From positions 217,642-281,641 of the forward strand of contig CAVVJT010000002.1 of NCBI GenBank assembly GCA_963748625.1: DNA of 64,000 bases. Direction: 5' to 3'. This DNA comes from an uncultured Chloroflexia bacterium. GTDB taxonomy: Bacteria; Chloroflexota; Limnocylindria; Limnocylindrales; CSP1-4. The notes under the pieces are model-generated. The model ran no database searches. It saw nothing but the letters and a program-made list of their open reading frames with translations, and was not told where the DNA came from. Shown here one piece after another: positions 39,343 through 64,000 of this stretch (positions within the stretch are counted from its first letter, which is position 1; each line of letters opens with the position of its first letter). The translations under genes and the position numbers were made by a program.

Positions 39343-39473
39343 CGGATCTCGGTCTTGCAGTCCTTGGCCATCCTGGGCATGCGGCGCTCAATGGAATTCA
39401 CCATCCCGCGAGCATACCGGCCGATCTCCCGTGCGGGTACCGGGCGTCACGGCAGGCTGGACCGCAGCGCCGG

Positions 39474-45091: not shown

Positions 45092-45178
45092 CGTTCCGTC
45101 TCCCTGGTTCGCGTCTCCCGGGGGACGCCCGACGGGAGAGGCTGGCGCCGAGACTGGGCGCCGACGTGGTGAGGCGGC

Positions 45179-45196
45179 ATCACCACAGGTGGTGAT
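45179..45196. promoter_or_regulatory. ATCACCAC-AG-GTGGTGAT palindrome, copy 2
   Basis: Identical to 40430-40447. Confidence 0.75.
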
Positions 45197-45397
45197 CGCG
45201 CTGGTGATTAGCGTGCGTGGCGAGCCCGCCGGGCGGTACCGGGGCGTGCGGAGCGACCACTCGGAGTTGTCCAGCAGCGCCACGAGTGCTGGTGCTCTCC
45301 ACCGGCCACCCGGGCTGCTTCCGGCTCGCGTCGGGGCAGTGCGCATCCCCCGATCCTGATCACACCGCCGAACGCGGTGGAGCGTGGTGGGATGGAC

Positions 45398-45493
45398 CCG
45401 GGAATCAAGAAACCCGCCTCGATTGAGGCGGGTTTCGTGCTTGTCGAGTGGAGCCGACACTCGGATTTGAACCGAGGACCTGCTGTTTACGAA
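45398..45493 (-). repeat. att-like duplicate of the tRNA-Thr 3' half plus terminator
   Basis: 45448-45493 is identical to 63719-63764 and ends in the anticodon loop; hairpin also duplicated. Confidence 0.95.
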
Positions 45494-45761
45494 GTTCCTG
45501 CCCGCTCAAGGGTCCCCTGGAACTGCTGTTTCCCCGTTCAGAACCACGCTGATCGTGGATTTGCGCCGCCGGTTGTCAACCCCGTGAAGTAGCTCAGCAA
45601 CTTCACGGATCTCGTGAAGCGGAGTGGACCGTAGCGTGGACGCGAGTCGACCGTCCAACGGCCCTGCTGCCACGTGCTGAGGCGCTGCGCGTGCCGGCCA
45701 TCCCTAGCGCAAGTCACGGTCGTGACGGGTGCCACCAAAGGGTCCGCTGCAGGCCCGATCC

Positions 45762-47069
45762 TCAGGAGGGTGCCACTGCGCGGGCAGCGTCCATTTCGAG
45801 CGCCGTGAGCTGAAGGATCAGGTGATCCCGCTGCTCCAGCACTCGCGCCGTGAGCCTCTTGAGAGCCTCGGGGCTCAGCCGGTGCTCCCCGTCGAGGAGC
45901 TCCAGCTCGATCGGCTCCCACGCCGCTTGGGCAACGGGAGTCAGCAGAGCGGGATCCCGGTCCGCGACGTACTGCAGCTCGCGCATCGCCCACCAGGCGG
46001 AGTCACGACTTGGCCGTTCCCCGCCTGCCTCGAGGGCCGGTGGCAGTTCCTGGCCCACGGTCACGGGCAGGAACAGTCCGGTGCAGGGGGTCGCCATGCA
46101 GATCCACGCCACCGGCGGAAGGGAGTTGTCGGCGAGCTCCACGACCATGGTCGCCGAGGTGGACGCCGGCTGGAACCCGGGATGGATGCAGACGGTCCGG
46201 CGTGGGACGGCACCCTCGGCGAGTGGGAGGTTCACCAGGCCGCCCTCGAAGTGATCACGCAGGTAGCGCATGAACTGTGGGATCCCATGCTCCGCCCGAT
46301 CCGCGACGACGCGGCAGCCCACCTCGTACCGGTCCTGGGTCCACGAGCGTGCCGCCCGGTCCTCGTATGCATCCCGGAAGTTGAAGCGGCTCCCCTCGGG
46401 CGCCGCCCAGTAGCCCATCTCTCGCGCGTGTTCCTCGATACCCATCGAGCACTCGTCCCAGTCGTCCTCGATGGTCAGCAGGTTCGCGATGGTCGCACCC
46501 GTCGTTGTCCGCCGGGCGACCCAATGGCGCCGGGACGTCTCGATCACCCACGCCTCGTTCGGGTCCGCGACGATGAAGCTGTTGTGATAGCTGGCGTCCG
46601 AGCCGTAGACCGCTGGGCCGCCCTGGCCGTACTGCTCGAGCAGATCGGTGATCACCCGCTTGGCTTCGGCTGCTGTCCGACCGCGCTCGAGACCGAGGCG
46701 CACGAGATCCATGCCCAGCAGGCCGGTCTCCGGCACCGGGTCGTGGGTGTAGATCGCCTCATTGCCGATAGCCACGCCGTGCTCGTTGACGCCCTGCTCG
46801 AACCCCCACAGCCACCAGGGACGCTGGCCGAGGACGGCGTGGGTCCGGGGGACCTGCGGGATCGTCAGGTACTGGCACCTGACGGTCGCTCCCGGCCCGT
46901 GCACGGCTGCGGGAACCTGGGTGAGCGGCTGGCACTCCACGCCGGGGCGGTCGCTGCTCTTCGCGAAGATGGCCCGGCGCCCGTCGCCCGAGCCTGTGAA
47001 GACCACGATCGTGTCGCAGGATGCCTGGTAGCTCCGGTTCGTGTCTGCCACGGGATCGAGCCCTCGCAT
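45762..47069 (-). CDS. C69 dipeptidase/secernin family Ntn hydrolase
   Basis: 'SCDT', 'FAKSSDR', 'WGFEQGVNEHGVAIGNEA', 'GMDLVRLGLER', 'VCIH'. Confidence 0.92.
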   Translation of the reverse strand: MRGLDPVADTNRSYQASCDTIVVFTGSGDGRRAIFAKSSDRPGVECQPLTQVPAAVHGPGATVRCQYLTIPQVPRTHAVLGQRPWWLWGFEQGVNEHGVAIGNEAIYTHDPVPETGLLGMDLVRLGLERGRTAAEAKRVITDLLEQYGQGGPAVYGSDASYHNSFIVADPNEAWVIETSRRHWVARRTTTGATIANLLTIEDDWDECSMGIEEHAREMGYWAAPEGSRFNFRDAYEDRAARSWTQDRYEVGCRVVADRAEHGIPQFMRYLRDHFEGGLVNLPLAEGAVPRRTVCIHPGFQPASTSATMVVELADNSLPPVAWICMATPCTGLFLPVTVGQELPPALEAGGERPSRDSAWWAMRELQYVADRDPALLTPVAQAAWEPIELELLDGEHRLSPEALKRLTARVLEQRDHLILQLTALEMDAARAVAPS

Positions 47070-47077
47070 GTTGCGGG

Positions 47078-47977
47078 TCAGGGGGTTTCAGGTGAGCGGG
47101 ACTTGGGCATAGAGGCGGTCGGCGGGGCACCTACGTGTGGTGAGGTCGACGGCTCGAACACGTCGCTGATGCCAGGGCCACGAGGGGCCGCATCCAGGTA
47201 GAACGCGTTCGAATTGCGGGCAGACCACACGTTCATGCTCAGGACCGGCTCCGTGGCTGAGAGGAGTGTCACCAGGCTTTCCTCCGTCTCGCGCCACAGG
47301 TGCTCGGTCGCTGCCACCGCTCGAGCGGGATCGTTCTCCGCCAGCGCATCAAGCAGGTCGGCGTGGTCATGGGCGAGCATGCGGGCCGGGACGCCGAGGG
47401 CGACCGCGAGATTGCGGAATCGCAGGACCCCCTGGGTGAGCTGGGTCATGACGTCGGCTTGAACGGCGTTGTCCTGGGCGCGTGCCACCGCGAGGTGGAA
47501 CTGCAAGTCCGCGCGGATCCACCCATCCGCGGTGAGGCCGTCACGGTCGGAGGCGAGGCCCTGCTGCACCTGTGCCTCCAGCGCCTCCAGTCGAGCCCCA
47601 CCGCCAGCCGATGCGGTCACCGACTCCACGGCGGCAGCCTCGAGCCTCGCGAGGAGCCCGCACGTGTCGCGCACGTTCTTGAGGGTCACCGGCGCCACCC
47701 GGTACCCGGATCGCGCCTGCACCATCACCAGGCGTTCGAGCTTCAGGCGCAGCAGCGCCTCCCGCACCGGGGTCTTGCCGAACCCAACCTGGCGCACCAG
47801 CTCCTGCTCGGTGAAGGAGCTGCCCGGTGGCATCTGCACGGTGACGATCAGTCGCCGGATGGCCTGGTAGGCGTCCTCAGCGTTCGACCTCGCGACGCGC
47901 TCCGGCTCCACTTCCCGCACGCTCTCCGCTTCATCCAGCCACGACCGTTTCGTTCGGCCAAATCCTAGCACTGACAT
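47078..47977 (-). CDS. GntR/FCD family regulator
   Basis: 'GKTPVREALLRL..E.LV', 'DLQFH.AVA....N'. Confidence 0.9.
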   Translation of the reverse strand: MSVLGFGRTKRSWLDEAESVREVEPERVARSNAEDAYQAIRRLIVTVQMPPGSSFTEQELVRQVGFGKTPVREALLRLKLERLVMVQARSGYRVAPVTLKNVRDTCGLLARLEAAAVESVTASAGGGARLEALEAQVQQGLASDRDGLTADGWIRADLQFHLAVARAQDNAVQADVMTQLTQGVLRFRNLAVALGVPARMLAHDHADLLDALAENDPARAVAATEHLWRETEESLVTLLSATEPVLSMNVWSARNSNAFYLDAAPRGPGISDVFEPSTSPHVGAPPTASMPKSRSPETP

Positions 47978-48062
47978 ACTGCGGAATCTTCGTGACATTT
48001 CCAAACGCCTGTGTAATATATCAGCCACCACGATCTGGTGGATCACTGAGGCACTGGCGAGC

Positions 48063-48896
48063 ATGGCGAGTTCCGACCTGAGCATTCCCACCGTCACGCG
48101 GGTGTCGACCGTGCATGCCGGCGTGGAGTGGGAGGCGCTCGTGCATGTGCCGGTCCGTCCGCCCGTGGCGATCGCCATCGTTTTCCATCCCATGGGACTC
48201 GGACCCGAGGCCGTGCTGGACGGGGAGCCGATCGGGGAGAATCTCATCCGACCCCTCGAGGGGTTGCGACCAGCGGCCGACTGTCACGGCCTCTTGATCA
48301 TTGCGCCTCGCGGGCGGGGGCGCGCCAGCATCGACGGGGTCTCGCTCGCCTGGGAGCCGCACCTCCGCGCCGCGTTCGAGTTCGCGCAGGAGTTGCGCGC
48401 CCGCATCGGGCCCCTCCCGATCGTCGCCGGCGGCCTGTCTCAGGGTGGCCTGGAGGCGCTTGTGCTCGCCGGGCTCGAGCCCTCTGAAGTCCGAGCCGTG
48501 TGGGCGGTGAATGCGCCGGTCGACATCCACCGGTTGCGGATCGACCGCGGGCGGCGTGATCAGCGGCACCGTGCCTCGGCGCTGGATCTGGCCCTGATCA
48601 AGGAACTCGGGACGGATCGACGCCAGTGGGCAGCGAGGACCCCGCTCGCGTATCTCCCCGCCCTTGCACGAGTCGAGCGAATCCAGCTCGTCTGGTCCCC
48701 GGACGACGAGATCGTTCCCGACGGCGATGCCCACTGCGGACGCCTCGCCGGGGAGCTCCGGGCCTTGGGAGGGGTCGTCGACGAACGTCGAGTCACGTTC
48801 GTTCCGCCTAGGGGCGATGTGGATCCGGGGCGATATGCCCACGAGTCCTGCGACGTGTGGAGCGGTGTCGCCTTTCTCGCGGCTGCTGGGAGGTGA
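48063..48896 (+). CDS. Alpha/beta hydrolase-fold protein
   Basis: GLSQGG elbow, 'DEIVP', C-terminal His. Confidence 0.7.
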   Translation: MASSDLSIPTVTRVSTVHAGVEWEALVHVPVRPPVAIAIVFHPMGLGPEAVLDGEPIGENLIRPLEGLRPAADCHGLLIIAPRGRGRASIDGVSLAWEPHLRAAFEFAQELRARIGPLPIVAGGLSQGGLEALVLAGLEPSEVRAVWAVNAPVDIHRLRIDRGRRDQRHRASALDLALIKELGTDRRQWAARTPLAYLPALARVERIQLVWSPDDEIVPDGDAHCGRLAGELRALGGVVDERRVTFVPPRGDVDPGRYAHESCDVWSGVAFLAAAGR

Positions 48897-49023
48897 GCGA
48901 CGACGTCACCGATTGAAGCGCCGGGCAGGAGCACGCATTCAGAGCCGGGAGGAGCACGCCACCGGTGAGAGGGACAGGCAGATGATCCAGAAGCGACGAA
49001 CACAACCGAGAATGGAGCGTGAC

Positions 49024-50376
49024 ATGACGTCCACACAGCACTCGCGCCGGAGGGGGCCGTCCTTCCTCCGCGCGACCACCGTCGTAGGCCTCGGCCTGCT
49101 CGTGGCAGCCTGCTCCTCGGGGGCAACGTCGGGGACAGCGGTCCCCGCTAGCACCGAAGCCCCTGCCTCGGCCTCTGCTGTGACCGCCGTGCCTTCGGCG
49201 GCCGCGGAGGCGACTGAGCTGGTCTTCCTGCCGCACATCACCCCGAACCTCTCGCTCGACTTCTGGCAGTCGGCGGTCGACCGCTGCACCTCCGTCAACC
49301 CCGACCTCAAGGTCACCATGGTGACCGCGCCCGACACGGCCACGGAGAAGTACGCACAGCAGCTCCTGGCCGCGGGGGACCCGCCCGACGTGGCATCGAC
49401 CGTGATCTTCAACTCGGGCCTCTGGCCGGAGTTGCTCCCGTTCGACACGAGCGACCCGGAGGTCCAGCAGATCCAGGGCTTCGAGAATGCCCTGATCGAC
49501 GGGAAGCTCCTGAACCTCGGGATTGTCAAGGAGGCCCGCAGCACGCTCTTCTACAACAAGGACATGTTCGAGAAGGCGGGCATCACGACCCTCCCGACGA
49601 CGTACGCTGAGTTCGAAGATGCGCTCGCCAAGCTCAAGGCTTCGGGTGTCACGCCCATGCTGACTGCCGGCGAGTGGGTGACGGGTGAGGTCCTCAACGA
49701 CTTCAGCGACACGCTCAAGACCAATGCGGCGTGGTACACCGACCGTCACGCCGGCAAGGTGAAGTTCGCCGACCAGGACTGGGTCGACGGTGCCACCCGG
49801 ATCCGCGACTGGGCGGCGAAGGGGTACTTCAACGAGGGAGCCCTCGGCATCGGTTACGCCCAGCTCGAGGAGGAGTTCCTGAGCGGGAACGCGGCCATCT
49901 ACCCGATGGGGACGTGGTTCACGGCGGCCGCCAAAGCCCGCCCGCCCGCCTTTGAGATCGGGGTCATGGCCCCGCCGAGCAGCGACGGCCGGCAGGTCCT
50001 CACGGGCGCGAGTGCCTACGGCGGCTACTCCGTGTTCAAGCAGACCGAGCATCCGGCGGAGGCGGTCCGGCTTGCGAAGTGCCTCGCGTTCGACCAGGAG
50101 GCGCTGACGGCATTCCTCGACGCGGACGGCCAGTTCTCGAGCGTGGACTTGACAAGCGGCCCGCTCGACCGGGAGCTCACGCCGCTCCAGCAGGACGTCG
50201 TGAAGCTGTTCGAGTCCGTCGAGGCGTTCAATCCGAGCTACTTCGGCCAGGGCGACAACTCGCCCAAGCCGGGGATCCAGGACCTGTTCGTCCAGGCAGC
50301 CGCGGCGCTCATCCTCGGCACGGGCGATCCGAAGGCTGAGCTCGAGAAGATCGACGCTGCCTGGGAGGCCAACTAG
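49024..50376 (+). CDS. Carbohydrate ABC transporter substrate-binding lipoprotein
   Basis: Lipobox VAAC; 'FYNKDMFEKAGI..PTT..EF'. Confidence 0.92.
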   Translation: MTSTQHSRRRGPSFLRATTVVGLGLLVAACSSGATSGTAVPASTEAPASASAVTAVPSAAAEATELVFLPHITPNLSLDFWQSAVDRCTSVNPDLKVTMVTAPDTATEKYAQQLLAAGDPPDVASTVIFNSGLWPELLPFDTSDPEVQQIQGFENALIDGKLLNLGIVKEARSTLFYNKDMFEKAGITTLPTTYAEFEDALAKLKASGVTPMLTAGEWVTGEVLNDFSDTLKTNAAWYTDRHAGKVKFADQDWVDGATRIRDWAAKGYFNEGALGIGYAQLEEEFLSGNAAIYPMGTWFTAAAKARPPAFEIGVMAPPSSDGRQVLTGASAYGGYSVFKQTEHPAEAVRLAKCLAFDQEALTAFLDADGQFSSVDLTSGPLDRELTPLQQDVVKLFESVEAFNPSYFGQGDNSPKPGIQDLFVQAAAALILGTGDPKAELEKIDAAWEAN

Positions 50377-50380
50377 TCTC

Positions 50381-51331
50381 ATGGCCGCCGGATCCCGACA
50401 CCTGGGAGACCCGCTGCCGGGATCCGGCGTTGCCCGTGCACATCGCCGCCCGCGGACGGCACGACGGAGGGCAAGGCCCGGCAGCGCGGTGCTTCTGGCC
50501 TTGCCCGCACTGCTTCTCTACGCCGTGTTCGTGCTCGGCCCGATCGGCCTGTGCCTTGCGTACAGCCTCACGAGCTGGAACGGCATCGCACCCGAGATGC
50601 CGTTCGTGGGCCTCGACAACTACGCCGAGGCGATCGGCGATCCGGCGGTCTACTCCGCATTCGCGGTCACGGCCGTGATCGCGGTGACGGCCACCATCGT
50701 CCTCAACGTCCTCGCGATCCCGATGGCTGTCCTGCTCAATCGCACCGACATCGTGACGAGGGTCTACCGCTCGATCGTCTTCTTTCCGATCATCCTGGCG
50801 CCGCTGGTCGTCGGGCTGATCTGGCAGGTGATCCTCAACACGAGCGGGATCCTGAACGCCGGCCTCGCCCAGTTCGGCATCGGCAAGACACATCTGCTCG
50901 CGGATCCGTGGCTCGCGGTCGCCTCGATCACCTTTGTGACCATCTGGCAGACGCTCGGGTTCACGACGGTCCTATACCTGGCAGCCCTCCAGTCGATCCC
51001 GGACGAGCTCTACGAGGCGGCCACGATCGATGGGGCGGGTTCAGCCGCCCGTTTCCGGCATGTCACCGTGCCGATGCTCGCACCCGCAATCACCGTCAAC
51101 GTCGTCCTCCTGCTGATCTTCTTCATGCGCACGTACGACTACGTCGTGTCCATGACGTCGGGAGGCCCGGGCACGGCGACGTATACGGTCGCCTACCTGC
51201 TCATCCAGCGCACCTTCACCGCTCTGCGATACGGGTACGGGTCCGCGATCGCGATCATCTTGCTGGTCGTGGTCTCGGTTCTGTGCGGGGCGGTCATCAC
51301 GGTGCTCCGCCGGCGGGAGGCAGTCCAATGA
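50381..51331 (+). CDS. Carbohydrate ABC permease
   Basis: 'LYEAATIDGA' EAA motif; 'FVGLDNY'. Confidence 0.93.
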   Translation: MAAGSRHLGDPLPGSGVARAHRRPRTARRRARPGSAVLLALPALLLYAVFVLGPIGLCLAYSLTSWNGIAPEMPFVGLDNYAEAIGDPAVYSAFAVTAVIAVTATIVLNVLAIPMAVLLNRTDIVTRVYRSIVFFPIILAPLVVGLIWQVILNTSGILNAGLAQFGIGKTHLLADPWLAVASITFVTIWQTLGFTTVLYLAALQSIPDELYEAATIDGAGSAARFRHVTVPMLAPAITVNVVLLLIFFMRTYDYVVSMTSGGPGTATYTVAYLLIQRTFTALRYGYGSAIAIILLVVVSVLCGAVITVLRRREAVQ

Positions 51332-52152
51332 CCGAGCAATTCGGCCGTCACGGGATCCTCATGCTCACGGCCGTCTGGTTCCTGGTTCCGCTCTACCTGG
51401 TCGTCATCAACGCGTTCAAGACGAAGACCGACATCCTGCGAGACCCGATGGGCATCCCGGTCGACCGGCTGACCACGGCGAACTTCGAAGCCGCAATCAA
51501 CAGCAAGACCTTCGACCTGGCCTACGCCTACGGATTCTCGGCACTGATCGCCCTGAGCGCCGTCGTGATCATCCTCGGCTGTGGGTCGATGATCTCCTAC
51601 TACATTGCGCGACGGTCCGGCGGCTGGGGAAACCGCCTCTACCTCCTCCTGCTCGCGGGCTTGATGGTGCCGCCGCAGGTCGTGTTGATCCCGGTCGTGA
51701 AGGTGCTCGATGCGATCGGCCTGCTCTTCACGCCTTGGGGCCTGATCCTCTACGACTCGGCGCTGTACATGCCCCTGGCCGCGTTCGTGTACGTCGGGTT
51801 CATCCGCAGCCTCCCGATCGAGCTCGACGAGGCGGCCGCGGTGGACGGAGCAGGCCCGATGCGGACGTTCTGGCGGGTCATCTTCCCCCTGCTCACTCCC
51901 GCGACCACGTCCCTGTTCGTCATGCTGATCATCTTCGTCTGGAACGACTTCGTGAACCCCCAGATCCTGCTCGGAGCCAACCAGGGCTACACCGTCACGA
52001 CGGGCATCTTCCGTGCGATCGGCCGGTACCAGACGAACTGGGGCGAGATCTTTGCGTTCATCCTGCTCGCGTCCCTGCCGATGCTGGTCCTGTACCTCAC
52101 GATGCAGCGCTACATCGTGGGCGGCCTGACCAAGGGCGCCGTCAAGGGCTGA
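51328..52152 (+). CDS. Carbohydrate ABC permease
   Basis: 'ELDEAAAVDGA', 'WNDF', 'GAVKG'. Confidence 0.93.
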   Translation: MTEQFGRHGILMLTAVWFLVPLYLVVINAFKTKTDILRDPMGIPVDRLTTANFEAAINSKTFDLAYAYGFSALIALSAVVIILGCGSMISYYIARRSGGWGNRLYLLLLAGLMVPPQVVLIPVVKVLDAIGLLFTPWGLILYDSALYMPLAAFVYVGFIRSLPIELDEAAAVDGAGPMRTFWRVIFPLLTPATTSLFVMLIIFVWNDFVNPQILLGANQGYTVTTGIFRAIGRYQTNWGEIFAFILLASLPMLVLYLTMQRYIVGGLTKGAVKG

Positions 52153-53334
52153 TGCCTGGCGTGCATCCTGGGCTCGCTCCCCTGCGGGTTGTGATTGCTC
52201 CCGACTCGTTCAAGGGGAGCCTCACCAGCGTGCAAGTCGCGGGCGCACTTGCCGCAGGATGGTCCGCGGCACGTCCAGGCGATCTCGTCCAACTCGTGCC
52301 ACTCGCCGATGGCGGGGAGGGAACGCTCTGTGCGCTTGAAGCCGCGGGCGGGTGGCACCGACGATGGACCGTGGCCGGCGATCCGCTCGGCAGGATCATC
52401 GACGCGCCCTGGTTGGTGAGCGCGGATGGCGCCGTCGCCTTCGTCGAGACGGCAGCCGTGTCTGGTCTGTCTCTCGTCGCACATGCAGAACGAGACCCTA
52501 TCGGCGCCTCGACACAAGGAACGGGGGAGGTCGTGCGCGCCGTCCTCGACGTCGGCATCCGGGACATCATCATCGGGCTCGGCGGCAGCGCGACGACTGA
52601 TGGCGGGGCCGGATTCCTGTCTGCACTGGGAGCTGTCGTTCAGCTGGATGGCTTGGGCATGCCTGCGCAAGTCGACCTCGACGACCTAGATCCCCGATTG
52701 GCCGAGACACGGATCCGCGTCGCCTGTGACGTCACGAACACGCTTCTTGGACCGCTACGGCGCCGCGGCGGTGTACGGACCGCAGAAGGGCGCGACAGCA
52801 GCAGCAGCAGCCCTCCTTGAGGCTCGGTTCGCGTCGTTTGCGGACCTGCTCGAGGCGACGACCGGGCGTCTCGAACGGGACTCACCCGGCGCTGGTGCAG
52901 CGGGCGGTCTCGGGTTTTCGCTGCTCTCACTGACCGGACAGCTGAAGCGCTCGAACTCCTGCCCGGAATTGACCTGATCGCTGGGGCCGCTGGCCTTGAT
53001 GCGTCCCTGTCACGATGCGGATGTGGTGATCACGGGCGAGGGCTGCGTCGACGCGCAGACTGCCTTCGGCAAGACCGCATTCGGCGTCGCGCTCCGCGCC
53101 CGCGCCGCAGGCACTTGCTGTCTGGTGGTCGGCGGGCAGGTCACGTACGACGGGCGCGCGGCCCTGGCCGAGGTCGGAGCTGTTGTCATACCCGTGACGG
53201 ACCCTTCCAGCCGCTGGCGGCGATCACGGCCGGTGCCGTGCTGGTCGAGGCCTGCGGGGCCGGGATGGCGCAGGAGATCGACGAGCTCCTCGCTTCGTGC
53301 TCCCGACTTCGCCCGGAGTGATGCTCGGGCCTGA
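52152..53334 (+). pseudogene. Glycerate kinase (GlxK/GarK), frameshifted (decay or read errors)
   Basis: 'APDSFKGSL', 'DGGEGT', 'GGSATTDGG' / 'YGPQKGA', 'GAAGGLG' / 'TGEG..D.QT..GK' lie in different frames. Confidence 0.85.
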
Positions 53335-53416
53335 CCTTGACCGGCAGCTCCGCGTGCGGCGCGACGCGGCGACACGGGGCGGGACGCAGGCGCTTGCCAT
53401 CGCCGACAGCGGCCAT

Positions 53417-53598
53417 TCGCATTTGAACGGTGGACACAGGTCTTACGAAGATCGCTGAGCCCGCTCAGAGGGCCCGATGGAACCGCTGTTTCCCCGTTCA
53501 TGAACGCCGCTGATCCGTGGATTCGGTGGTTCGCCCGTAAGTACAACCCAGTGAAGTTGCTCAGCAACTTCACGGACGTTCGTGAAGCGAAGTCGACG
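53417..53598. repeat. Degenerate att copy plus island-end sequence homologous to ~45461-45630
   Basis: TCGCATTTGAACGGTGGAC..TTACGAAG, GCTGTTTCCCCGTTCA, GTGAAGTTGCTCAGCAACTTCAC. Confidence 0.85.
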
Positions 53599-53851
53599 CT
53601 ACACCGCCGTCAAGGCTCGACGACACCTACTCGATTCTCCGGGCCCGATCTCAGACGGGATCGCCGTTGGTGATGGCGCTGCACGGCCACTTCGGGAGCG
53701 GGGCGCCCGCATTGACCCTGGCCTTCAGCGCTGCGTCCGAGGCACGTGGCGCGTGCGCTGCACTCCCGTGCCGTGGGCTCTCACCTACTCGCGGTGGTCG
53801 CTACAGTGGTGCGATCCGTCGTCCTGCTTCGACACTCACTGGGGGAGCCTG

Positions 53852-55397: not shown

Positions 55398-56438
55398 CGA
55401 GCTGGACCAACGTCGAACTTGGCAGTCTGTGCCGTCCCAGGCAGTGGCCAACCATCGCAAAGTCACAAATGGCGACGTCGGGATTCCCCGTGTATGGCGC
55501 AAACGGTCAGATCGGCTTCTCGCAAACCTACACACACGAGGAGCCGACGATCTTGGTGGGGTGCCGGGGGTCATGCGGAACGGTTCACATCACCGTTCCC
55601 AGATCGTACGCCACCGGGAATGCCATGGCGCTCGACGACTTGGACACGTCCAGGATCACCAAGGCGTTTCTCGCGCACTACCTGCGGTTTCGAGGGTTCC
55701 GCGATGTCACAACCGGCTCGTCTCAGCCGCAGATCATCGCGAGCAACCTCGTTCGCGTCCGAGTGCCGGTTCCTCCGCTCGCTGAGCAAGACCGAATCGC
55801 GGGCCAGCTGGATGCAGCAGTTCAACTGCGCTCCATGCGCCTGCGCGCACTACAACTCACTGACCAGATTGAGGCCGCCACCTTTCGGGCGATGATTGGC
55901 ACTCCAGCCGCCAATCCACACAGACACCCGACCCGGCCGCTTGGTGATCTCATCGAAGCTCTCGTCTGGCAAGTATCTACCCTCGGCGGAGATCGGGACG
56001 TCCGGCATGTACCCAGTGTTTGGTGGCAATGGCGTCTTGGGCCACACGAGCCAGTACCTGTTCGAAGATGCCCGGATCGTCATTGGGCGAGTCGGAGCCC
56101 AATGCGGGTGTGTGCACGTAGCCCCGGCGCGCAGCTGGATCACTGACAACGCAATGCATGTGTCGCGACTCGACGACTCAGTCTCGTTTGCCTACCTCGT
56201 CCACGCACTGAGGATGGCGAACCTGAACCAGTACTCCAGCGCGTCAGGGCAACCACTCGTGTCCGGCTCGAGGATCTACCCTGTCAGGATTCTGGTTCCA
56301 CCCATGGACGTGCAGACAAGGTTCGGCGCCAACATGGCAGCTGTCGCGTCGATCCGAGAGCGACAGCGCGCCTTTCTGTGGGCGCTGACGCCTCTGAACG
56401 CAGCCCTGTACAGCCACGCCTTCGCCGGTCAAACGTGA
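55394..56438 (+). CDS. hsdS: Type I R-M specificity subunit (one apparent frameshift near 55960)
   Basis: Two TRDs, '[11 protein letters not shown]' and 'VPPMDVQ.RF'; ATGA overlap with hsdM. Confidence 0.9.
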
Positions 56439-56439
56439 G

Positions 56440-59400
56440 ATGAGCCAGTTTCGCTTCCTCCGAGATGAGTGGCCGCAGGTCTTCGAGGCTGCGGCTCGCG
56501 TGGAGGTGGCGGCCAACTCGGACCCGCGGGCGGCATGCTTCTACGCCCGGCGTGCCTTGGAGCTCGCGGTATCGTGGGCGTACAAGCACGACGCCGCGCT
56601 CGTGCTCCCGTACCAGGACAACCTGTCGGCGCTCGTCTTCGAGCCGACCTTCCGCCACGTCGCTGGTGACGCGGTCTTCAACAAGGCGCGCGTGATCATC
56701 ACGCTCGGCAACCGGGCGGTCCACAGCAACGCACCGATCCCGGTGTCGGACGCGGTCGTCGCGGCCGGCGAGCTGTTCCACGTCTGCTACTGGCTCGCCC
56801 GCACGTATGCGCGCGACGAGCGCCCGGCGCCGGACCTCCGCTTCGACCCGAGCAGGCTCCCCAAGACCGTCACGATCACCAAGCAGACCGCGGACCAGCT
56901 CAAGGCACTCGCCGCCACCCTGCGCGAGAAGGACGAGAAGCTCACCGAGCTGCTCAGCGGCAGGACGGAGCTCGAGGCCGAGCTCGCCAGGCTGCGCGCC
57001 GAGATCGCCAACGGCGAAGAAGGCCGCCGCCGTCCAGCCAGACACCCACGACTACAGCGAGGCCGCGACCCGCGACTTCTTCATCGACCTCCTGCTCAAG
57101 GAGGCCGGCTGGCCGCTGGCCGACGCGCGCGACCGCGAGTACGAGGTCGCCGGCATGCCCAACGGCGACGGCCGGGGCTTCGTGGACTACGTCCTCTGGG
57201 GCGACGACGGCATCCCGCTCGCCCTGGTCGAGGCCAAGCGGACCCGGCGCGACCCGCGGGCAGGGCAGCAGCAGGCGAAGCTCTACGCGGACTGCCTCGA
57301 GGCGCAGTTCGGCCGCCGCCCGGTCATCTTCTACACGAACGGCTACGAGCACTGGCTCTGGGACGACGCCCACTACCCGCCGCGCCGGGTGTCGGGCTTC
57401 TACAAGAAGGCCGAGCTCGAGCTCCTGGTCCAGCGCCGGACCACCCGCAAGCCGATCGCGACGACGCCGATCAGCCCGGTCATCGTCGAGCGCTACTACC
57501 AGACCCGCGCCATCCGCCGGATCGCCGAGTCGTTCGAGCGCGACCGCCAGCGCAAGGCGCTCCTCGTCATGGCCACGGGCTCCGGCAAGACCCGGACCGT
57601 CATCGCGCTCGCGGACCTGCTGATGCGCGCGAACTGGGCCAAGCGGATCCTGTTCCTCGCCGACCGGGTCGCGCTGGTGCGCCAGGCGTCCAACGCGTTC
57701 AAGGCGTTCCTGCCCGACGCGTCGCCGGTCAACCTGCTCGACGACCCGACGGGCGACGGCCGCGTCTTCGTCTCGACCTACCCCACGATGATGGGCCTGA
57801 TCGACGAGGCGGCCGACGGGCAGCGCCGGTTCGGGCCCGGCCACTTCGACCTCGTCGTCATCGACGAGGCGCACCGCTCGGTCTTCGCCAAGTACCGCGG
57901 CATCTTCGACTACTTCGACTCCCTCCTCGTCGGCCTGACGGCCACGCCCAAGGACGAGATCGACAAGAACACGTACAGCCTGTTCGACCTCGAGACCGGC
58001 GTGCCCACCGACGCCTACTCGCTCGAGGAGGCGGTGCGCGACGGGTTCCTCGTCCCGCCCGAGGCCGTCTCGGTGCCGCTCAAGTTCCAGCGCGAGGGCA
58101 TCAAGTACGACGAGCTCTCCGACGAGGAGAAGGACGCCTACGACGCGCTCGAGTGGGAGGACGACCCGCCCGACGTCGTGGCCGCGGCCGCGGTGAACAG
58201 CTGGCTCTTCAACGTCGACACGGTCGACAAGGTGCTCGCCCACGTCATGGAGCGGGGCATCAAGGTCGCGGGCGGCGACCGGCTCGGCAAGACGATCATC
58301 TTCGCCAAGAACCAGGCGCACGCGGACTTCATCGCCGAGCGGTTCGACGCCAACTACCCGCACTACCGCGGCGAGTTCGCGCGCACCATCACCTACCGGA
58401 CCGAGTACGCCCAGAGCCTGATCGACGCCTTCTCGGCCAAGGACAAGGCGCCGCACCTCGCCATCTCGGTCGACATGCTCGACACCGGGATCGACATCCC
58501 CGAGATCGTGAACCTCGTGTTCTTCAAGCTCGTCCGCTCGAAGACCAAGTTCTGGCAGATGCTGGGCCGCGGGACGCGCCTGTGCCCGGACCTGTTCGGG
58601 CCCGGGGACGACAAGACCAAGTTCCGGCTGTTCGACTACTGCGGGAACCTCGAGTACTTCAGCCAGGACCCGCCGACGACTGAGGGCTCGGTCGACCGAG
58701 TCGCTCGGGAAGCGGCTGTTCGTGCGGCGGATGGAGGTGGTCGCGGCCCTCGAGGAGCGGCTGGGCGGCGAGGTGACGCAGGTCGCCGCACCGGCAGCGC
58801 CCGTCTACGGCGACCCGGTCACCGACGACGAGGTCCGCCGGTCGCTCGTGGCGTCGCTGCACGGCGAGGTCGCGGCGATGAACCTCGACAACTTCCTCGT
58901 CCGGCCGCAGCGGCGGCTGGTGGAGCGGTTCCGACAGCCAGAGGCGTGGGGTCCGCTGTCGGTCGAGGACCGGACGGCGCTCGCAGAGCACGTCGCCGGG
59001 CTGCCGGCCGAGCTCGAACCCCGATGCCGAGGAGGCCAAGCGGTTCGACCTGCTGATGCTGAACCTGGAGCTCTCGCTGCTGTCTGCGCTGCCGGCGTTC
59101 GAGAAGCTGCGCGACCAGGTCCGGGCGATCGCCGGGATCCTGGAGGAGAAGGCGGCCATCCCGATGATCGCGGCCCAGCTCCCGCTGATCGAGGAGATCC
59201 AGTCGGACGACTGGTGGGTCCACGTCACCGTCCCGATGCTGGAGCGGGTCCGCCGACACCTGCGCGACCTCGCGCCGTTGATCGAGCGCGGGCGCCGGAA
59301 GGTCCTGTTCACCGACTTCGAGGACCTCGATGGGCGCCGAGGTCGAGATCGGCCTGCCCGGCCTCGTCGCCGGCATCGACTTCGAGAAGTTCCGGGTGAA

Positions 59401-59860
59401 GGCGCGCGCCTTCCTGCGCGAGAACGAGGACCACGGCGTCGATCCGGAAGCTGCGCACGAACCAGCCGCTCTCGCCGTTCGACCTCGATCGAGCTCGAGC
59501 GGATGCTGCTCGAGAGCGGCGTGGGCGACAAGGGCGCCCTCGAGCGCGCCAAGGCCGAGTCAGAGGGCCTCGGGCTGTTCGTGCGGATGCTGGTCGGCCT
59601 CGACCGAGCCGCCGCCAAGGAGGCGTTCGGCGAGTTCCTCGCCGACCGGGCGCTTGACGGCGAACCAGATCGAGTTCGTCAACCTGATCGTCGACCACCT
59701 GACCGAACACGGCGTGATGAAGGCCGAGCAGCTGTACGAGTCGCCGTTCACGGACATCGCGCCGCACGGACCTGACGCCCTATTCGCAGGAGCGGACGTG
59801 GACCTGCTGATCGCGACGCTCCGGCAGGTGCGCGCGACCGCTGTCGCTTCGATCCAGTAG
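56440..59860 (+). CDS. hsdR: Type I R-M restriction subunit (multiple apparent frameshifts)
   Basis: 'DYVL..VEAK', 'QAKLYAD', 'ATGSGKT', DEAH, 'LTATP', 'QMLGRGTR', C-terminal 'LYESPFTD'. Confidence 0.93.
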
Positions 59861-59907
59861 GTCGGGCGCATGACGGGCTGCTGCTGAACCTGGAGGTCAA
59901 TCGAGGC

Positions 59908-61530
59908 ATGACGCCGATCGACTGGACGAGGATGTCCGATGGCCAGTTCGAGGACATGGTGTCGTGCCTTCTCTCGCACGAGAATCCGTTGGTCCAGCGG
60001 ATCGATGGCAAGGGCGGTGACGGTGGCCGAGACTGCCAGTTTGAGGACGCTGACGGGTTGCGGGTCTACCAGATGAAGCACTTCCCCGGTGGACGCGTCC
60101 GGAAGACCCAGAGACGCCAAGTCGAGCGCTCTTTGGTCACGGCGAGCAAATTGAACCCCGTCGAGTGGTGGCTCATCACGCCAGTCGATCACAACAAGTG
60201 GGAGAAGGACTGGTTCGACACGCTGAAGGCCAAGTATCCGTTCCCCTTGGTTTGGCGCGGACGCACCTGGCTCGATGGCATGTTCGCCGAGCGACAGTTC
60301 ATCTATGACTACTACGTGCGAACGACAGCCGACGAGGTCGTGAAGATCCTGCGCGAGGTTGCACACGAGTCAGCCGCGCTGGCGGGAGGCATCCCCGACG
60401 CTATCGAGCGGACCGAGACCTTGGTTCGGCGAGCGAACACGCTCGATCCGCATTACCGGTTTGAGATCGCCAGCGACGGCCGCTCCTCGCGGGTCACCAT
60501 TCAACCGGCATACGCGGGTGCAGAGCTGGATCGGCCGATCACCATCCAGAGCCAGTTTCGCTTCGACACCAAGACCGAGGAAGGGCGTGCCAAGCTCGAG
60601 GCCTTCGAGAAGGCGCTTGACTTTGGCATCCCGGTCGAACTTAGCGGTGAGTTTGTCCCGACTGTCGAACTTGATGCGCCGGCCGGGCTGGGAGGGACTT
60701 TCGAGCGGCCTTCGATCGAAATCGGACCCGGTCAGCCGGCCATCACCGAGCCGATCACGCTGGTCTTCAACGTGTCTGACCCCCTCGGAGCCGTACTGGC
60801 GGAGTTGTCGGTTACGGGCCAGGCAACATCAACGGGGCGGCGCGGAACGGTGCTCCACGGACAGGACCGGGGCGGCTATCTCAGAGCCGTGGTCGTGATT
60901 GACGTCGGAGATGGGAGGTACCGCATCAACTTCCATGTGCAGTGGAAGCGGTTCATTCCCCAAGACTTCCTACCAGTCGCCCGATTCCTTGCCGCATATC
61001 ACACCCCCAACGCGGTATCCATCGCGCGCGATGATGGCACGATGCAGGGAACGCCTGAGCTCGGACCCGCCGAGCCCCTTCTCGGGCGCGAGATCTGCGA
61101 GTTCGTCGAGAACCTAGCCCTCGTCCAGATGTCCACCGGCCTCCTCCGGGAGGTGGCGGGTGCAATCGAACCCGAGGATTTCTATGCGGCTGCCGCGGGC
61201 CGGGCGCTCCTGACCGGACAGTCAGTCCGGATGCCTTGGACGAGCCTCACCATGACACTGGCGCCAGACGCCTCACTTGAAACCCGTACCAGACTAGTCC
61301 GCGAAGTCGTGAGGTTCGAGACAACCGAGAGGGCTCCCGTTCCCCTGGAGATTTGTGGCACGACGTACCGGGTAGGGACCGCCCACAGGATTGCCGTGAC
61401 GGCCCGGGTAGACCCAACCCGATCTGGCGCACCGGATTCAGAACCGTTTGACGCCACCACTCCCGTCGTGCTCATGCCCGAAACTAACGATCCACTCGCG
61501 CTGGTCACGCTGGTCCAGGGTTCGGGCTGA
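59908..61530 (+). CDS. Uncharacterised protein with N-terminal PD-(D/E)xK-type nuclease domain
   Basis: 'FEDMV..LL..IDGKGGDGGRD..VYQMKHF'; GGAGG RBS. Confidence 0.75.
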   Translation: MTPIDWTRMSDGQFEDMVSCLLSHENPLVQRIDGKGGDGGRDCQFEDADGLRVYQMKHFPGGRVRKTQRRQVERSLVTASKLNPVEWWLITPVDHNKWEKDWFDTLKAKYPFPLVWRGRTWLDGMFAERQFIYDYYVRTTADEVVKILREVAHESAALAGGIPDAIERTETLVRRANTLDPHYRFEIASDGRSSRVTIQPAYAGAELDRPITIQSQFRFDTKTEEGRAKLEAFEKALDFGIPVELSGEFVPTVELDAPAGLGGTFERPSIEIGPGQPAITEPITLVFNVSDPLGAVLAELSVTGQATSTGRRGTVLHGQDRGGYLRAVVVIDVGDGRYRINFHVQWKRFIPQDFLPVARFLAAYHTPNAVSIARDDGTMQGTPELGPAEPLLGREICEFVENLALVQMSTGLLREVAGAIEPEDFYAAAAGRALLTGQSVRMPWTSLTMTLAPDASLETRTRLVREVVRFETTERAPVPLEICGTTYRVGTAHRIAVTARVDPTRSGAPDSEPFDATTPVVLMPETNDPLALVTLVQGSG

Positions 61531-61638
61531 CTCGACCCAAACGGCATCGTCTACCGTCCACCTACCCCTCAGCACCACGGACCCAGGGGCAGAGAGCGGG
61601 TCACGCGTGGCGCACAAGCCCGCTCGCGCCGATGTCGG

Positions 61639-62607
61639 TCACAACAGGTCGCGGTGCTCAGTCACGCGGCGCAGGACGGCGCTGAAGGTGGGCTTCTGCT
61701 CGGCCGGCGAGAGCAGTCCCATCGAGATGGAGTAGGACTCCTCGAGCCACCCGCGCAGCGGCGTGCGTGGCGGCGGCGCGAAGGCCGGCGATGCCGCGAA
61801 CCCCGCCTCGGGTCGCTCGGTGTGCCCAGCGTAGTGTGCGTCGCTCATCATCTCGATCTCAGCGAGCAGGTGGCCGAACCGCACGCGGTCGCGGAGCCGT
61901 GCGAGGGTCGGTTGATGGTCGAGTAGCCGGTAGATGTCGTAGTAGTGGCGGCCGAAACGCTGCTTGTTCGGCGGGGCATCCGCGGTCCAAGTGCTCACCT
62001 GGTGGTGCAGCGCGACGAGCTTCTCGGTGAGGGTCCGCACCGGGTCGAGCACCCGGATGCGGAACGGGTCAAGATCGTCGGCGAACTCCGTCGGATCGAG
62101 CCCCGTCCAGCCGCCGACGAGGGTGCGGATCTCGCACATCTCCGACGGCGTGTCGCCCTCGGCGATCCGGGTTTCGAACAAGATCGCATCGGTGTTGATC
62201 GTCCTGCCAAAGCCACCTGTGTGTGCCCCCGGGTACCGCAGGTAGTCCCCGCGTGACGGGCTCCGGCCGTATCCCGGCTTGCGCGCCGCCTCCCAGCTGA
62301 TCCCGAGTTCCTGTGCCACGTCGGCGGTGAGCGCCTCCAAACGTCTGGCCCCGGCGGCCCCGCTCTCGTTAGCGTGCGGGATGACGACGATGTCGACGTC
62401 CTCGGAGAACCGGTTGATGATCCCGTACCCCTTGGACAGGCTCGTCCCGCCCTTTAGGACGAACCCACCAGCGCACACACGCGTGAGCGCTCGGAGCACC
62501 TGAGTGACCCAGTAGTCCTTCTCGATGAAGGCCGCGGGGTCGGGCAGGTCGCGGGCAGCGATTCCGAACACCTCGGGAAAGCCGTCTGCCTCGCGGAGGA
62601 GCGCCAT
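61639..62607 (-). CDS. AbiEii/AbiGii nucleotidyltransferase toxin
   Basis: 'IEKDYWV', 'LKGGTSLSK..RFSEDVD', 'EK', 'RHYYD'. Confidence 0.92.
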   Translation of the reverse strand: MALLREADGFPEVFGIAARDLPDPAAFIEKDYWVTQVLRALTRVCAGGFVLKGGTSLSKGYGIINRFSEDVDIVVIPHANESGAAGARRLEALTADVAQELGISWEAARKPGYGRSPSRGDYLRYPGAHTGGFGRTINTDAILFETRIAEGDTPSEMCEIRTLVGGWTGLDPTEFADDLDPFRIRVLDPVRTLTEKLVALHHQVSTWTADAPPNKQRFGRHYYDIYRLLDHQPTLARLRDRVRFGHLLAEIEMMSDAHYAGHTERPEAGFAASPAFAPPPRTPLRGWLEESYSISMGLLSPAEQKPTFSAVLRRVTEHRDLL

Positions 62608-63311
62608 CACCCGACCTCGCGGATGACCGCGAGCGCCCGGTCCTGGGCGGACCGGCTGCGGGCACGGGCAATTCGGCCGGCCTCGGCGGTACGTCCCATG
62701 AACTCGAGAACCGCACGAAGGCGCTCGCGGACGGCGGGCGGCTCGGTGGTCGAGGCTGTGATGAGGCGGTCGAGGCGGACGTCGGGCAGTGCGAGGGCCG
62801 CCTCGAAGCGATCGACCGCGGCAAGTGTGGGGAGTTCCACGAAGCGGTCCCAGCCCTCGAGCGCCTCGAGGATGGTCACTTCGGTCACGGAGAGCCGGGC
62901 CTTGCGCCGCCCGGCTCGGCTGGCGCGGTTCACGAGCTTGACGTCGGGCAAGCCAGTCGGGATCCGCCGCGTGACCGAAATCACCGGCACTGGGGCGACC
63001 TGGGTCGAGAGCCCCAGAAGATTCGTTGCGTACCACTCGGCCGCGCCGACGGCCTCAGACTGCCCCACTATCGAACGCACGGCATCGAGGGAGGGTGCCA
63101 CGGTCGTGCCAAAGCGGGTTGGCGTGCCTCGCCAGTAGACGCCACGACGCACGCGTTCGATTTCGCCGTCGGCAACCATCCGGCCGAGCGCGAGTTCGAC
63201 CGCGTGGGGCTCCCCCGTGAAGTCGGATGGCCGCCAGAACCGATTGGGCGTGCGGCGGACGCGGCGACGGATCGCAGCCGCCACCGAGTCGGCAGGTTTG
63301 ACTCTCACCAT
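62607..63311 (-). CDS. AbiEi-type antitoxin (DUF6088-like)
   Basis: wHTH 'LGRM...GEI.RVRRGVY', 'NLLGLSTQV'; abuts the toxin. Confidence 0.85.
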   Translation of the reverse strand: MVRVKPADSVAAAIRRRVRRTPNRFWRPSDFTGEPHAVELALGRMVADGEIERVRRGVYWRGTPTRFGTTVAPSLDAVRSIVGQSEAVGAAEWYATNLLGLSTQVAPVPVISVTRRIPTGLPDVKLVNRASRAGRRKARLSVTEVTILEALEGWDRFVELPTLAAVDRFEAALALPDVRLDRLITASTTEPPAVRERLRAVLEFMGRTAEAGRIARARSRSAQDRALAVIREVG

Positions 63312-63356
63312 GAGCGCATCCCGTGACGAGTACCTCTCATAACGAACGGGGCAACG

Positions 63357-63560
63357 GTGGCAGATCCGATCATCATCGTCAACCGGCGCGAGCGCCCAAC
63401 GACGACGATCCTCCTAGGGATCCTGCTGATCATCTTCTTCATCCTCCACGCCAAGGTCGACAGTTTCGTGATCCACGAGATCAACGTGCTCGTGCTCGTT
63501 GGCGTAGGCGGCTCCATGGGGGCATCGTCACCTCTGGCGGGGTCCGCGACGCCCAGATGA
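63357..63560 (+). CDS. Small hydrophobic protein
   Basis: One clear TM helix; weak RBS. Confidence 0.4.
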   Translation: MADPIIIVNRRERPTTTILLGILLIIFFILHAKVDSFVIHEINVLVLVGVGGSMGASSPLAGSATPR

Positions 63561-63603
63561 GGATGGCGCCTGGCGCGACCGATGCGCCCTCCTACGCCAT
63601 GTC

Positions 63604-63626
63604 CCGTACCACTTTCCGTACCACTT
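63604..63626 (+). repeat. Direct repeat CCGTACCACTT x2, possible integrase arm sites
   Basis: 12-bp period, ~95 bp from the tRNA 3' end. Confidence 0.55.
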
Positions 63627-63679
63627 GCGCGGCGATTCAGGGCGGGTCGCAGCGCTACAGGACACCAGCCGGGAATCAA

Positions 63680-63707
63680 GAAATCCGCCTCGATTGAGGC
63701 GGATTTC
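63680..63707 (-). terminator. tRNA-Thr terminator
   Basis: GAAATCCGCCTC-GATT-GAGGCGGATTTC with a T-rich tail on the minus strand. Confidence 0.8.
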
Positions 63708-63719
63708 GTGTTCGTCAGG

Positions 63720-63794
63720 TGGAGCCGACACTCGGATTTGAACCGAGGACCTGCTGTTTACGAAACAGCTGCTCTACCGCTGAGCTATGTCGGC
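63720..63794 (-). tRNA. tRNA-Thr(CGT)
   Basis: GCCGACATAGCTCAGCGGTAGAGCA GCTGT-TTCGTAA-ACAGC AGGTCCTCGGTTCAAATCCGAGTGTCGGCTCCA. Confidence 0.97.
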
Positions 63795-64000
63795 GCGGAC
63801 CGCATTCTAGCAACCCTTGCCGTGCACGGCGACTCCCCGGTGGATCGGTCTGGGTTGACGGTGGACGGCTACGACTGCGGTAACCGGCCCGTCGACCGTG
63901 CGGCGGAGCTGGCCACGATCCGGGCCGACCTGCCGTCCCTGCGGGCGACGGTGGTGGTGCCGTACCTCCGGCGCGCCGAGGCGGACGCCGTCGCCGGCGG

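Follow-up and report, generated by a model that had tools for sequence, protein, structure and literature searches.

Two tandem integrase-less islands at a tRNA-Thr gene of a freshwater Limnocylindria-type bacterium share a conserved non-coding end

Cis-mobilisable elements (CIMEs), whose primary descriptions are reportedly those of Pavlovic in 2004 and Bellanger in 2011, offer the closest comparison for the locus described here, two tandem islands without an integrase that adjoin a tRNA-Thr gene of a freshwater Chloroflexota bacterium of Limnocylindria type. CIMEs and their tandem accretion were first described for ICESt1/ICESt3 of Streptococcus thermophilus; in the consulted part of a review they are flanked by attL and attR sites, lack integration and transfer genes, lie in tandem at the 3' part of their target gene and can be moved only by the integrase of a neighbor (PMC5704250). 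In Dehalococcoides, which also belongs to Chloroflexota, multiple tandem islands lie downstream of the small RNA gene ssrA with direct repeats of its 3' end and extra conserved bases beside the repeat, and the consulted part of that study reports 15 islands without an integration module, which were proposed to be cis-mobilisable (PMC3146451). The tycheposon-shaped islands of Prochlorococcus, as far as the consulted part of the preprint goes, are linked to tRNA genes, grow as successive integrations displace older elements inwards, and contain scattered partial tRNAs, fragmented integrases and cargo for defense and nutrient uptake (bioRxiv 10.1101/2020.12.28.424599). The locus studied here is like all three in these respects, and the dependence of CIMEs on a neighbor's integrase is proposed for its units as well.

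The stretch analyzed (the window) forms the final 64 kb of contig C2 in an assembly of 4,626,308 bases and 10 contigs, with a completeness of 98.3% and a contamination of 7.7%. We lean, with modest confidence, towards reading 45399-63794 as a tRNA-Thr(CGT) integration hotspot that holds two tandemly accreted, CIME-like passenger islands without an integrase, in which a shared block of about 150 bp after the displaced tRNA half, called Y, would serve as an arm of the attachment site attP. Each unit would consist of a Y arm, cargo and a T module (our name for the roughly 50 bases that follow the 3' end of the tRNA), and copies of the tRNA 3' half separate the units. Circular elements whose attP has the order T - tRNA 3' half - Y would recombine with the tRNA in its anticodon loop, and the boxes in Y, which are roughly helically spaced, would bind a tyrosine integrase or an accessory factor. 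The enzyme would be encoded outside the units, with a tRNA-Thr integrase of the type present in sister genera as helper or ancestor, while the passengers would have lost, or never had, recombination genes and would move only where an integrase of matching specificity occurs.

The sole tRNA that ARAGORN finds in the window is tRNA-Thr(CGT), at 63720-63794 on the minus strand. A first description made from the window alone (the sequence-only reading) had noted that 46 bp of its 3' half recur at 45448-45493, with a break in the anticodon loop where a tyrosine integrase might cross over, and that a decayed third copy lies between. All three points stand, and the outer repeat proves longer than noted. 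Positions 45448-45493 and 63719-63764 are identical at 46 of 46 bases, their identity ends within the anticodon loop after TTTACGAA, and the extended repeat pairs 45399-45493 with 63669-63764 at 94% identity over 96 bases. The parts of the locus, from left to right, are as follows.

45399 to 45447, minus strand: left copy of the T module, with a hairpin at 45410-45435 (AAACCCGCCTC-GATT-GAGGCGGGTTT); 94% identity to the right copy with the tRNA half included
45448 to 45493, minus strand: displaced 3' half of tRNA-Thr(CGT), left att core; 46/46 against 63719-63764
45494 to 45645, no strand: conserved end Y1, from sequence comparison
53405 to 53449, minus strand: decayed middle tRNA-Thr 3' half, internal att core; 33/46 identity, within an nhmmer match
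53450 to 53600, no strand: conserved end Y2, 81% identical to Y1
63669 to 63719, minus strand: right copy of the T module, with a hairpin at 63681-63706, from sequence comparison
63720 to 63794, minus strand: intact tRNA-Thr(CGT), the integration target, whose 3' half is the right att core; ARAGORN, and Rfam tRNA at 72.6 bits
63795 to 64000, no strand: tRNA upstream flank; the end of contig C10 repeats 63795-63841 along with the tRNA 5' half, and 63842-64000 is unique and runs to the end of C2

The outer repeats of tRNA half and T, together with the decayed internal copy, thus flank the units as attL and attR flank a CIME. The middle copy and its flank were retrieved by an nhmmer profile with E=8.8e-41; this half has 13 mismatches, though the left half should be the oldest relic and is perfect. 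With the inner repeat decayed and the outer ones intact, the most recent recombination most likely involved the 18-kb pair as a whole. The pair would then have arrived, or last recombined, as a unit; alternatively, conversion or selection kept the outer sites alike. The left and right T hairpins differ by a single compensated pair change, C-G to T-A, which suggests that both copies stayed functional during their divergence, each in a lineage of its own, and that the right T came in from another lineage. By eye the T hairpin looks like a terminator, and a simple terminator scan made no call there. Composition sets the units apart from their surroundings, as in other tRNA-integrated islands: GC is 67.5% in unit 1 and 66.7% in unit 2, whereas the left flank has 74.2% and window positions 1-38000 have 71.3%.

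Both displaced halves run on into homologous non-coding DNA, as the sequence-only reading had stated, with 45487-45630 (Y1) aligning to 53443-53597 (Y2; C2:271084-271238) at 81% identity and E=1.6e-26. A BLASTN search of the assembly with 45487-45630 returned these two stretches only, and a profile built from seven Y copies (nhmmer) matched the genome at the two Y sites and the tRNA only. Across those seven copies, which come from five sources and adjoin unrelated cargo, mean column identity is 77%. Invariant among them are the inverted repeat CGTTCAG-N7-CTGATCG, the palindrome GTGAAGT-N9-ACTTCAC, CGTGAAG repeats about 30 bases apart and two GTGGAC boxes 12 apart, the second of which is inverted in G141b and L058. 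Here and below, G000 is the genome under study, G141 a complete, single-contig genome of the same genus and the other G numbers are genomes of the family, of which 401 were examined; L numbers are individual loci or contigs, including metagenome contigs. The copies of tRNA half plus Y are called W1 and W2 in the window and G141a and G141b in G141. The boxes of the two window copies are:

45519-45531, no strand: second core-like box of Y1, GGAACTGCTGTTT, 43 bases from the true core
45535-45555: inverted repeat of Y1, CGTTCAG-N7-CTGATCG
45554-45559: CGTGGA box of Y1
45583-45589 and 45613-45619: CGTGAAG boxes of Y1
45584-45606: palindrome of Y1, GTGAAGT-N9-ACTTCAC
45624-45629 and 45636-45641: GTGGAC boxes of Y1
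53479-53491: core-like box of Y2, GGAACCGCTGTTT
53495-53517: inverted repeat of Y2
53551-53573: perfect palindrome of Y2 with an 11-bp stem
53581-53587: CGTGAAG box of Y2

The perfect stem in Y2, and a minus-strand frame (..LHEIREV..LHGVD..) that is open in most copies, are what a structured small RNA or a short peptide encoded by Y might leave, and we regard either as extremely unlikely. An Rfam scan of 44500-64000 matched the tRNA alone and nothing in Y, and RNAalifold on the seven copies gave a covariation term of +1.25, with compensatory changes in 1 of 38 pairs. With neither an Rfam match nor covariation, Y does not belong among the known structured RNAs, and the earlier description of the end as structured holds for its palindromes but finds no support in covariation. 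Coding was rejected as well since the frame is not kept in every copy, being shifted in W2 and, upstream of the motif, between W1 and G141a, and interrupted by a stop in G016 and L047, and since the invariant bases are spread over all three codon positions. Promoter and terminator scans made no call at 45300-45760, 53300-53700 or 63550-64000. Y is best read as a set of putative protein-binding DNA boxes, neither RNA nor gene.

In attP sites of the lambda type, a core with homology to the target is accompanied on both sides by clusters of arm-type repeats at helical spacing. The arrangement T - half - Y would resemble such a site in its core homology and in its clusters of short direct and inverted repeats, while the putative boxes of Y differ from the AGGGGTCA repeats of integrase-bearing relatives.

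Neither unit has a recognizable recombinase, a claim of the sequence-only reading that every search bore out. Pfam found no recombinase domain in 20 open reading frames (ORFs) of the window (19 in the units and one in the left flank). The phage integrase family PF00589 has four matches in the genome, none of them on C2; the serine recombinase family PF00239 also has four, on C3 and C8 only and none on C2; and tblastn with three integrases of the tRNA-Thr type, at E<=1, gave no match on C2. In the assembled sequence, which ends 206 bases past the tRNA, the units thus contain no integrase, excisionase or transfer genes, as in CIMEs, and no integrase adjoins the att site, as one does in an autonomous island. 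The tRNA-Thr-type integrase family has no member in G000; the best match is 28% identical and lies on C3, adjoining a fragment of another tRNA. On C3 (L105 10160-11498), a 415-aa tyrosine integrase reads toward a hairpin and the 3' piece of a different tRNA, which lies some 50 bases from the integrase stop, with no intact tRNA within 20 kb.

Integron cassettes form arrays of small, promoter-poor units that share a repeated recombination site and depend on a recombinase encoded outside the units. The window array is similar in its small units and repeated site and differs in lacking IntI and attI and in that a tRNA fragment with arms takes the place of a folded attC; no tyrosine recombinase lies on C2, and the repeats are tRNA fragments. 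Unlike CIMEs, as these appear in the consulted part of the review (PMC5704250), the window units belong to another phylum, target tRNA-Thr and have no resident helper, and units of their type go down to one gene and have a distinctive 150-bp box module in common. The Dehalococcoides islands use a tmRNA target, a 20-bp repeat and a CcrB-like serine recombinase, DsiB, according to the consulted part of that study (PMC3146451), whereas at the window the site is a tRNA anticodon loop, the repeat spans 46-96 bp and relatives have tyrosine integrases; the combination of ssrA and DsiB is absent, the target being a tRNA and the Resolvase matches lying on C3 and C8 only. Tycheposons are defined by an integrase and replication modules, neither of which the window units have by their Pfam domains, and a common arm module like Y is not described in the consulted part of the preprint (bioRxiv 10.1101/2020.12.28.424599). 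The concept of cis-mobilisable elements and their accretion is already in print, as the consulted parts of two of these sources make clear (PMC5704250, PMC3146451), and we regard the window as a known kind of stranded passenger element in a little-studied group.

The junction of tRNA half and Y recurs elsewhere with other cargo. It is present in W1, W2, G141a, G141b, L021, L058 and L061, and L070, which begins inside Y, is probably another example. The G141 array (L019) has tRNA halves at 360, 2721, 8600 and 10362 and an intact tRNA at 14757-14831; Y adjoins the first two halves, and the cargo comprises an esterase, a PAS hybrid histidine kinase, Fic, a ResIII/primase-like fragment and a MarR-like protein with a DUF6036 nucleotidyltransferase. 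No intact integrase lies within this array or on either side of it. In L021, from a metagenome-assembled genome (MAG) of Limnocylindrales, the unit carries a protein with an MTES_1575-type nuclease domain and Fic. L061 is a complete 2.5-kb unit with the order half - Y - one gene - T - half, its sole gene encoding a Schlafen/AlbA_2 ATPase, and the PAS-kinase unit of G141 recurs in L058, where it is 91.7% identical over 3796 bases and has another left neighbor. Thus the idea that the end recurs with varied cargo and no integrase is upheld by G141 (twice), the Limnocylindrales MAG, L058, L061 and probably L070, but the core motif of the end does not always stand behind a tRNA fragment, as discussed below.

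A pattern for the palindrome matched 3 of the 401 family genomes (reversed control, 0), and a stricter pattern matched two records in the genome_contigs scan. The metagenome scan returned 46 stretches, ten of which we judged to be of the same type (L041, L047, L057-L059, L061, L070, L076, L079 and L081; L041 and L079 are from the organism of L021) and 36 unrelated. Seventeen of these 36 (L037, L039, L040 and 14 more) share an identical 35-base sequence, a chance fit to the pattern; their contigs have about 60% GC, and some are labelled as gut metagenomes. Two IMG/VR matches were both unrelated sequences, and 31-base matches in G036, G009 and G096 were dropped as chance, there being no adjoining tRNA half. 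A 43-base fragment of the motif lies inside G141 (L019:7071-7115).

Integrases specific for tRNA-Thr were found among relatives. In G141, at L019 8600-8785 (G141:C1:648599-648784), the half is joined, exactly at its anticodon-loop junction, to the final 47 codons of a tyrosine integrase gene, and Fic follows. This remnant looks like the product of a secondary recombination inside an integrase gene. Integrases of the SSV type have their attachment site inside the integrase gene. A gene split by an internal att site was considered for G141 and rejected: the BLAST alignment between the remnant and integrase box II begins only near the junction, and residues encoded by the tRNA replace the conserved RH. 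We read the remnant as a truncated gene, not a split one. A search with the remnant matched 93 of 401 genomes at E<=1e-6, a count in which three genomes flagged as unpublished are included; no other result rests on these three. Among the best 11 loci, four have an intact tRNA-Thr(CGT) about 115 bases past the integrase stop, three have a 3' half of 45-46 bases, one has a tRNA-Lys and three have nothing within the locus.

In G228 and G290 the islands, of 16.8 and 15.6 kb, are bounded by the half and the tRNA, and the integrase (an ORF of 289-419 aa that ends about 90 bases before the tRNA; in G228 the 419-aa ORF at L121:17235-18491) lies at the tRNA-proximal end. Their arms have two AGGGGTCA repeats on both sides, with GTGGAC and CGTGAAAGGG in addition beside the tRNA end. 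Beside that end, integrase-bearing elements have 8 occurrences of CGTGAA and GTGGAC in 800 bases against a background of 1.48 per kb, an enrichment that is not an independent test because the loci are related. The T module of G141 matches that of the integrase-bearing element of G001 (1 of 200 shuffles reaches the score), and the right arm of the G141 Fic unit has two AGGGGTCA sites (0 of 200 shuffles). Degenerate AGGGGTCA arm sites seen by eye at the right ends of the window units were given up, as an alignment test gave them no support. In G016 (L103, G016:C69, 1335-2472), tRNA-Thr is followed after 190 bases by a piece of a different tRNA and a 372-aa integrase oriented away from tRNA-Thr, and AGGGGTCA-type repeats lie in between. 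A tblastn search of the metagenome loci with 18 integrase queries gave a single match, an N-terminal remnant in L047 of the same integrase as in G016. Most likely, the tRNA-Thr-specific integrase family of the sister genera represents the type of the helper or of the ancestor. At G290:C1:539453-539489, 37 bases of the tRNA-Thr 5' half are present a second time, 5.2 kb upstream of the intact gene, which suggests that 5'-side insertion occurs at tRNA-Thr as well.

A number of observations weigh against the reading of the units as passengers with an attP arm, and we take them up here together with the other explanations to which they lend weight. Neither G000 nor G141 has an integrase of the tRNA-Thr type, so that the units are stranded at present. 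No Y copy adjoins an integrase in the 401 family genomes or in the genome_contigs, metagenome and IMG/VR scans; Y lacks the AGGGGTCA repeats found in both arms of the integrase-bearing elements; and when the right ends of the units were compared with those arms, 149-200 of 200 shuffles reached the score for unit 2 and 4-151 of 200 for unit 1. The genes for hsdM, hsdS and glycerate kinase are each split over frames or ORFs, while long genes outside the islands are intact. Such broken cargo fits old relics; the splits may reflect real decay or local assembly error.

These points bear on an account in which the units are ordinary decayed islands, each of which lost its own integrase by deletion, with Y kept by recent descent and without function, and nothing moving. 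The integrase remnant that abuts a G141 half, together with the integrase islands at tRNA-Thr in sister genera, makes a decayed-island origin a live option, and the broken cargo genes, the decay of the middle core (33/46), the absence of a helper from both genomes and the statement, in the consulted part of the review, that CIMEs arise by such decay (PMC5704250) would all agree with it. Decay would, on the other hand, require a clean loss every time, because none of the seven aligned Y units keeps an integrase remnant (Pfam on main ORFs, and tblastn). The Y boxes are invariant across units with unrelated cargo, and the outer att cores match perfectly even though the oldest relic should be the left one. 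We hold decay of this kind to be a substantial possibility, though an unlikely one.

The positions of the motif raise a different question. It lies about 58 bases upstream of an intact tRNA-Thr in G016, L047 and L076, and it stands beside ordinary genes and without any tRNA piece in L021 at 1380 (also in L079) and in L057; neither situation is predicted by a pure arm model. Y might be a copy of the native upstream region of tRNA-Thr, or a regulatory operator that precedes the tRNA promoter, carried along with a decayed, element-borne copy of the tRNA, and its boxes would then regulate the tRNA or neighboring genes. The palindrome and CGTGAAG indeed precede intact tRNA-Thr(CGT) genes in those three loci, including the only copy in G016, the distance from motif to anticodon is nearly equal (89 against 88 bases), tRNA identity carries on through the anticodon stem in L059 and L081, and by eye a TTGACA-N16-CACGAT in Y points toward the tRNA half. 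We nevertheless find this quite improbable. When the first 88-95 bases of Y were aligned with the tRNA 5' half and its upstream sequence, 123-491 of 500 shuffles reached the score, and the more specific idea of a decayed 5' half with a promoter was set aside because global alignments were no better than shuffles, even though the spacing fits. The promoter scan makes no call, the presence of the motif in 3 of 401 family genomes argues against a general feature of the tRNA-Thr upstream region, and the similarity between G016 and L047 stops 19 bases past the motif, as at the boundary of an element.

C2 stops 206 bases beyond tRNA-Thr, so an integrase could lie in unassembled DNA. A third, integrase-bearing island, or the rest of unit 2, might then be situated beyond the contig end, 5' of the tRNA. 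The end of C10 (G000:C10:1405553-1405630; L102 14923-15000) equals window positions 63764-63841, that is, 31 bases of the tRNA-Thr 5' half and 47 identical upstream bases, and then diverges, while C2 continues for 159 unique bases before it ends; this branch point reflects either a mixture of strains or an unassembled island 5' of tRNA-Thr. A tRNA-Pro array of G000 with 5'-half repeats and an integrase on the 5' side, and the 5'-half copy 5.2 kb upstream of tRNA-Thr in G290, are further grounds for such an island. We consider it very improbable, since the 98.3% complete assembly has no tyrosine recombinase of the tRNA-Thr family and since complete G141 has a like array with no intact integrase on either side. 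Comparison of the G000 flanks with those of G141 found no real synteny matches. In public reads, 11 runs contained <=0.13 of the words sampled from 44800-46800, and contigs from four runs on 44200-64000 were short pieces whose joints have sides of 20-30 bases (one of 60), none at the att site.

Returning to the passenger islands, a wider form of that reading is that they belong to a cassette system of Limnocylindria at tRNA-Thr(CGT), in which integrase-free units of one to eight genes, often for defense, are tagged by T - half - Y and exchanged between genomes by a tRNA-Thr-specific tyrosine integrase supplied in trans from rare autonomous islands, with Y as a portable tag that would render any adjoining DNA mobilisable. 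Such a system would function like an integron that uses a tRNA gene as its attachment site. We put this forward tentatively, as a rather unlikely extension. Limnocylindria are abundant Chloroflexota of freshwater and soil without cultured genetics, and a limited search of the literature found no paper on their mobile elements. If the units do move as passengers, they would show how defense and uptake genes can be shuffled without a recombinase in each island, and the short Y module could then serve both to retrieve such cargo from metagenomes and to set up a simple recombination assay. Should the units be nothing more than relics, the locus is a decayed integration hotspot of the ordinary kind.

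The cargo of the two units is unrelated, one being catabolic and the other defensive as first proposed, a description borne out by Pfam for both units and by PADLOC and ESM Atlas for unit 2. The genes are:

45762 to 53334, no strand: unit 1 cargo, catabolism and transport (Pfam)
45762-47069, minus strand: C69/AAT-like hydrolase (Pfam)
47078-48247, minus strand: GntR/FCD regulator (Pfam)
48664-50376, plus strand: ATP-binding cassette (ABC) solute-binding protein (Pfam)
50381-51331 and about 51.4-52.15 kb: two permeases (Pfam)
51735-52820 and 52996-53334: glycerate kinase, split (Pfam)
53582 to 63311, no strand: unit 2 cargo, defense (Pfam, PADLOC, ESM Atlas)
53582-55397: hsdM of a type I restriction-modification system, in at least 2 frames, with frame changes inside it by GC3 (GC at third codon positions)
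55394-56438: hsdS, two overlapping ORFs
from 56440: DUF4145 ORF
56807-59056: hsdR, with a separate EcoEI_R_C piece in 59330-59860
59908-61530: Mrr-like restriction endonuclease family protein
61639-63036, minus strand: AbiEii
62607-63311, minus strand: AbiEi

Near 55032-55035, within hsdM, related contigs in public runs lack one base. To the left of the islands, window positions 38000-39500 have 63-64% GC within a neighborhood of 71-77% GC.

Other integration sites occur in the same genome. On C7 (G000:C7, L104 9369-19628), a tRNA-Pro(TGG) heads an array in which its 5' half and upstream bases are repeated four times (at 11561, 12673, 13978 and 19561), and 38 bases separate the 5' end of the tRNA from the start of a 343-aa tyrosine integrase ORF; integration here is on the 5' side, which makes the array a mirror image of that at tRNA-Thr. 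On C8 (G000:C8, L106 9357-10927), the ORF of a 519-aa large serine recombinase ends in or beside a tRNA-Arg(CCG) on the opposite strand.

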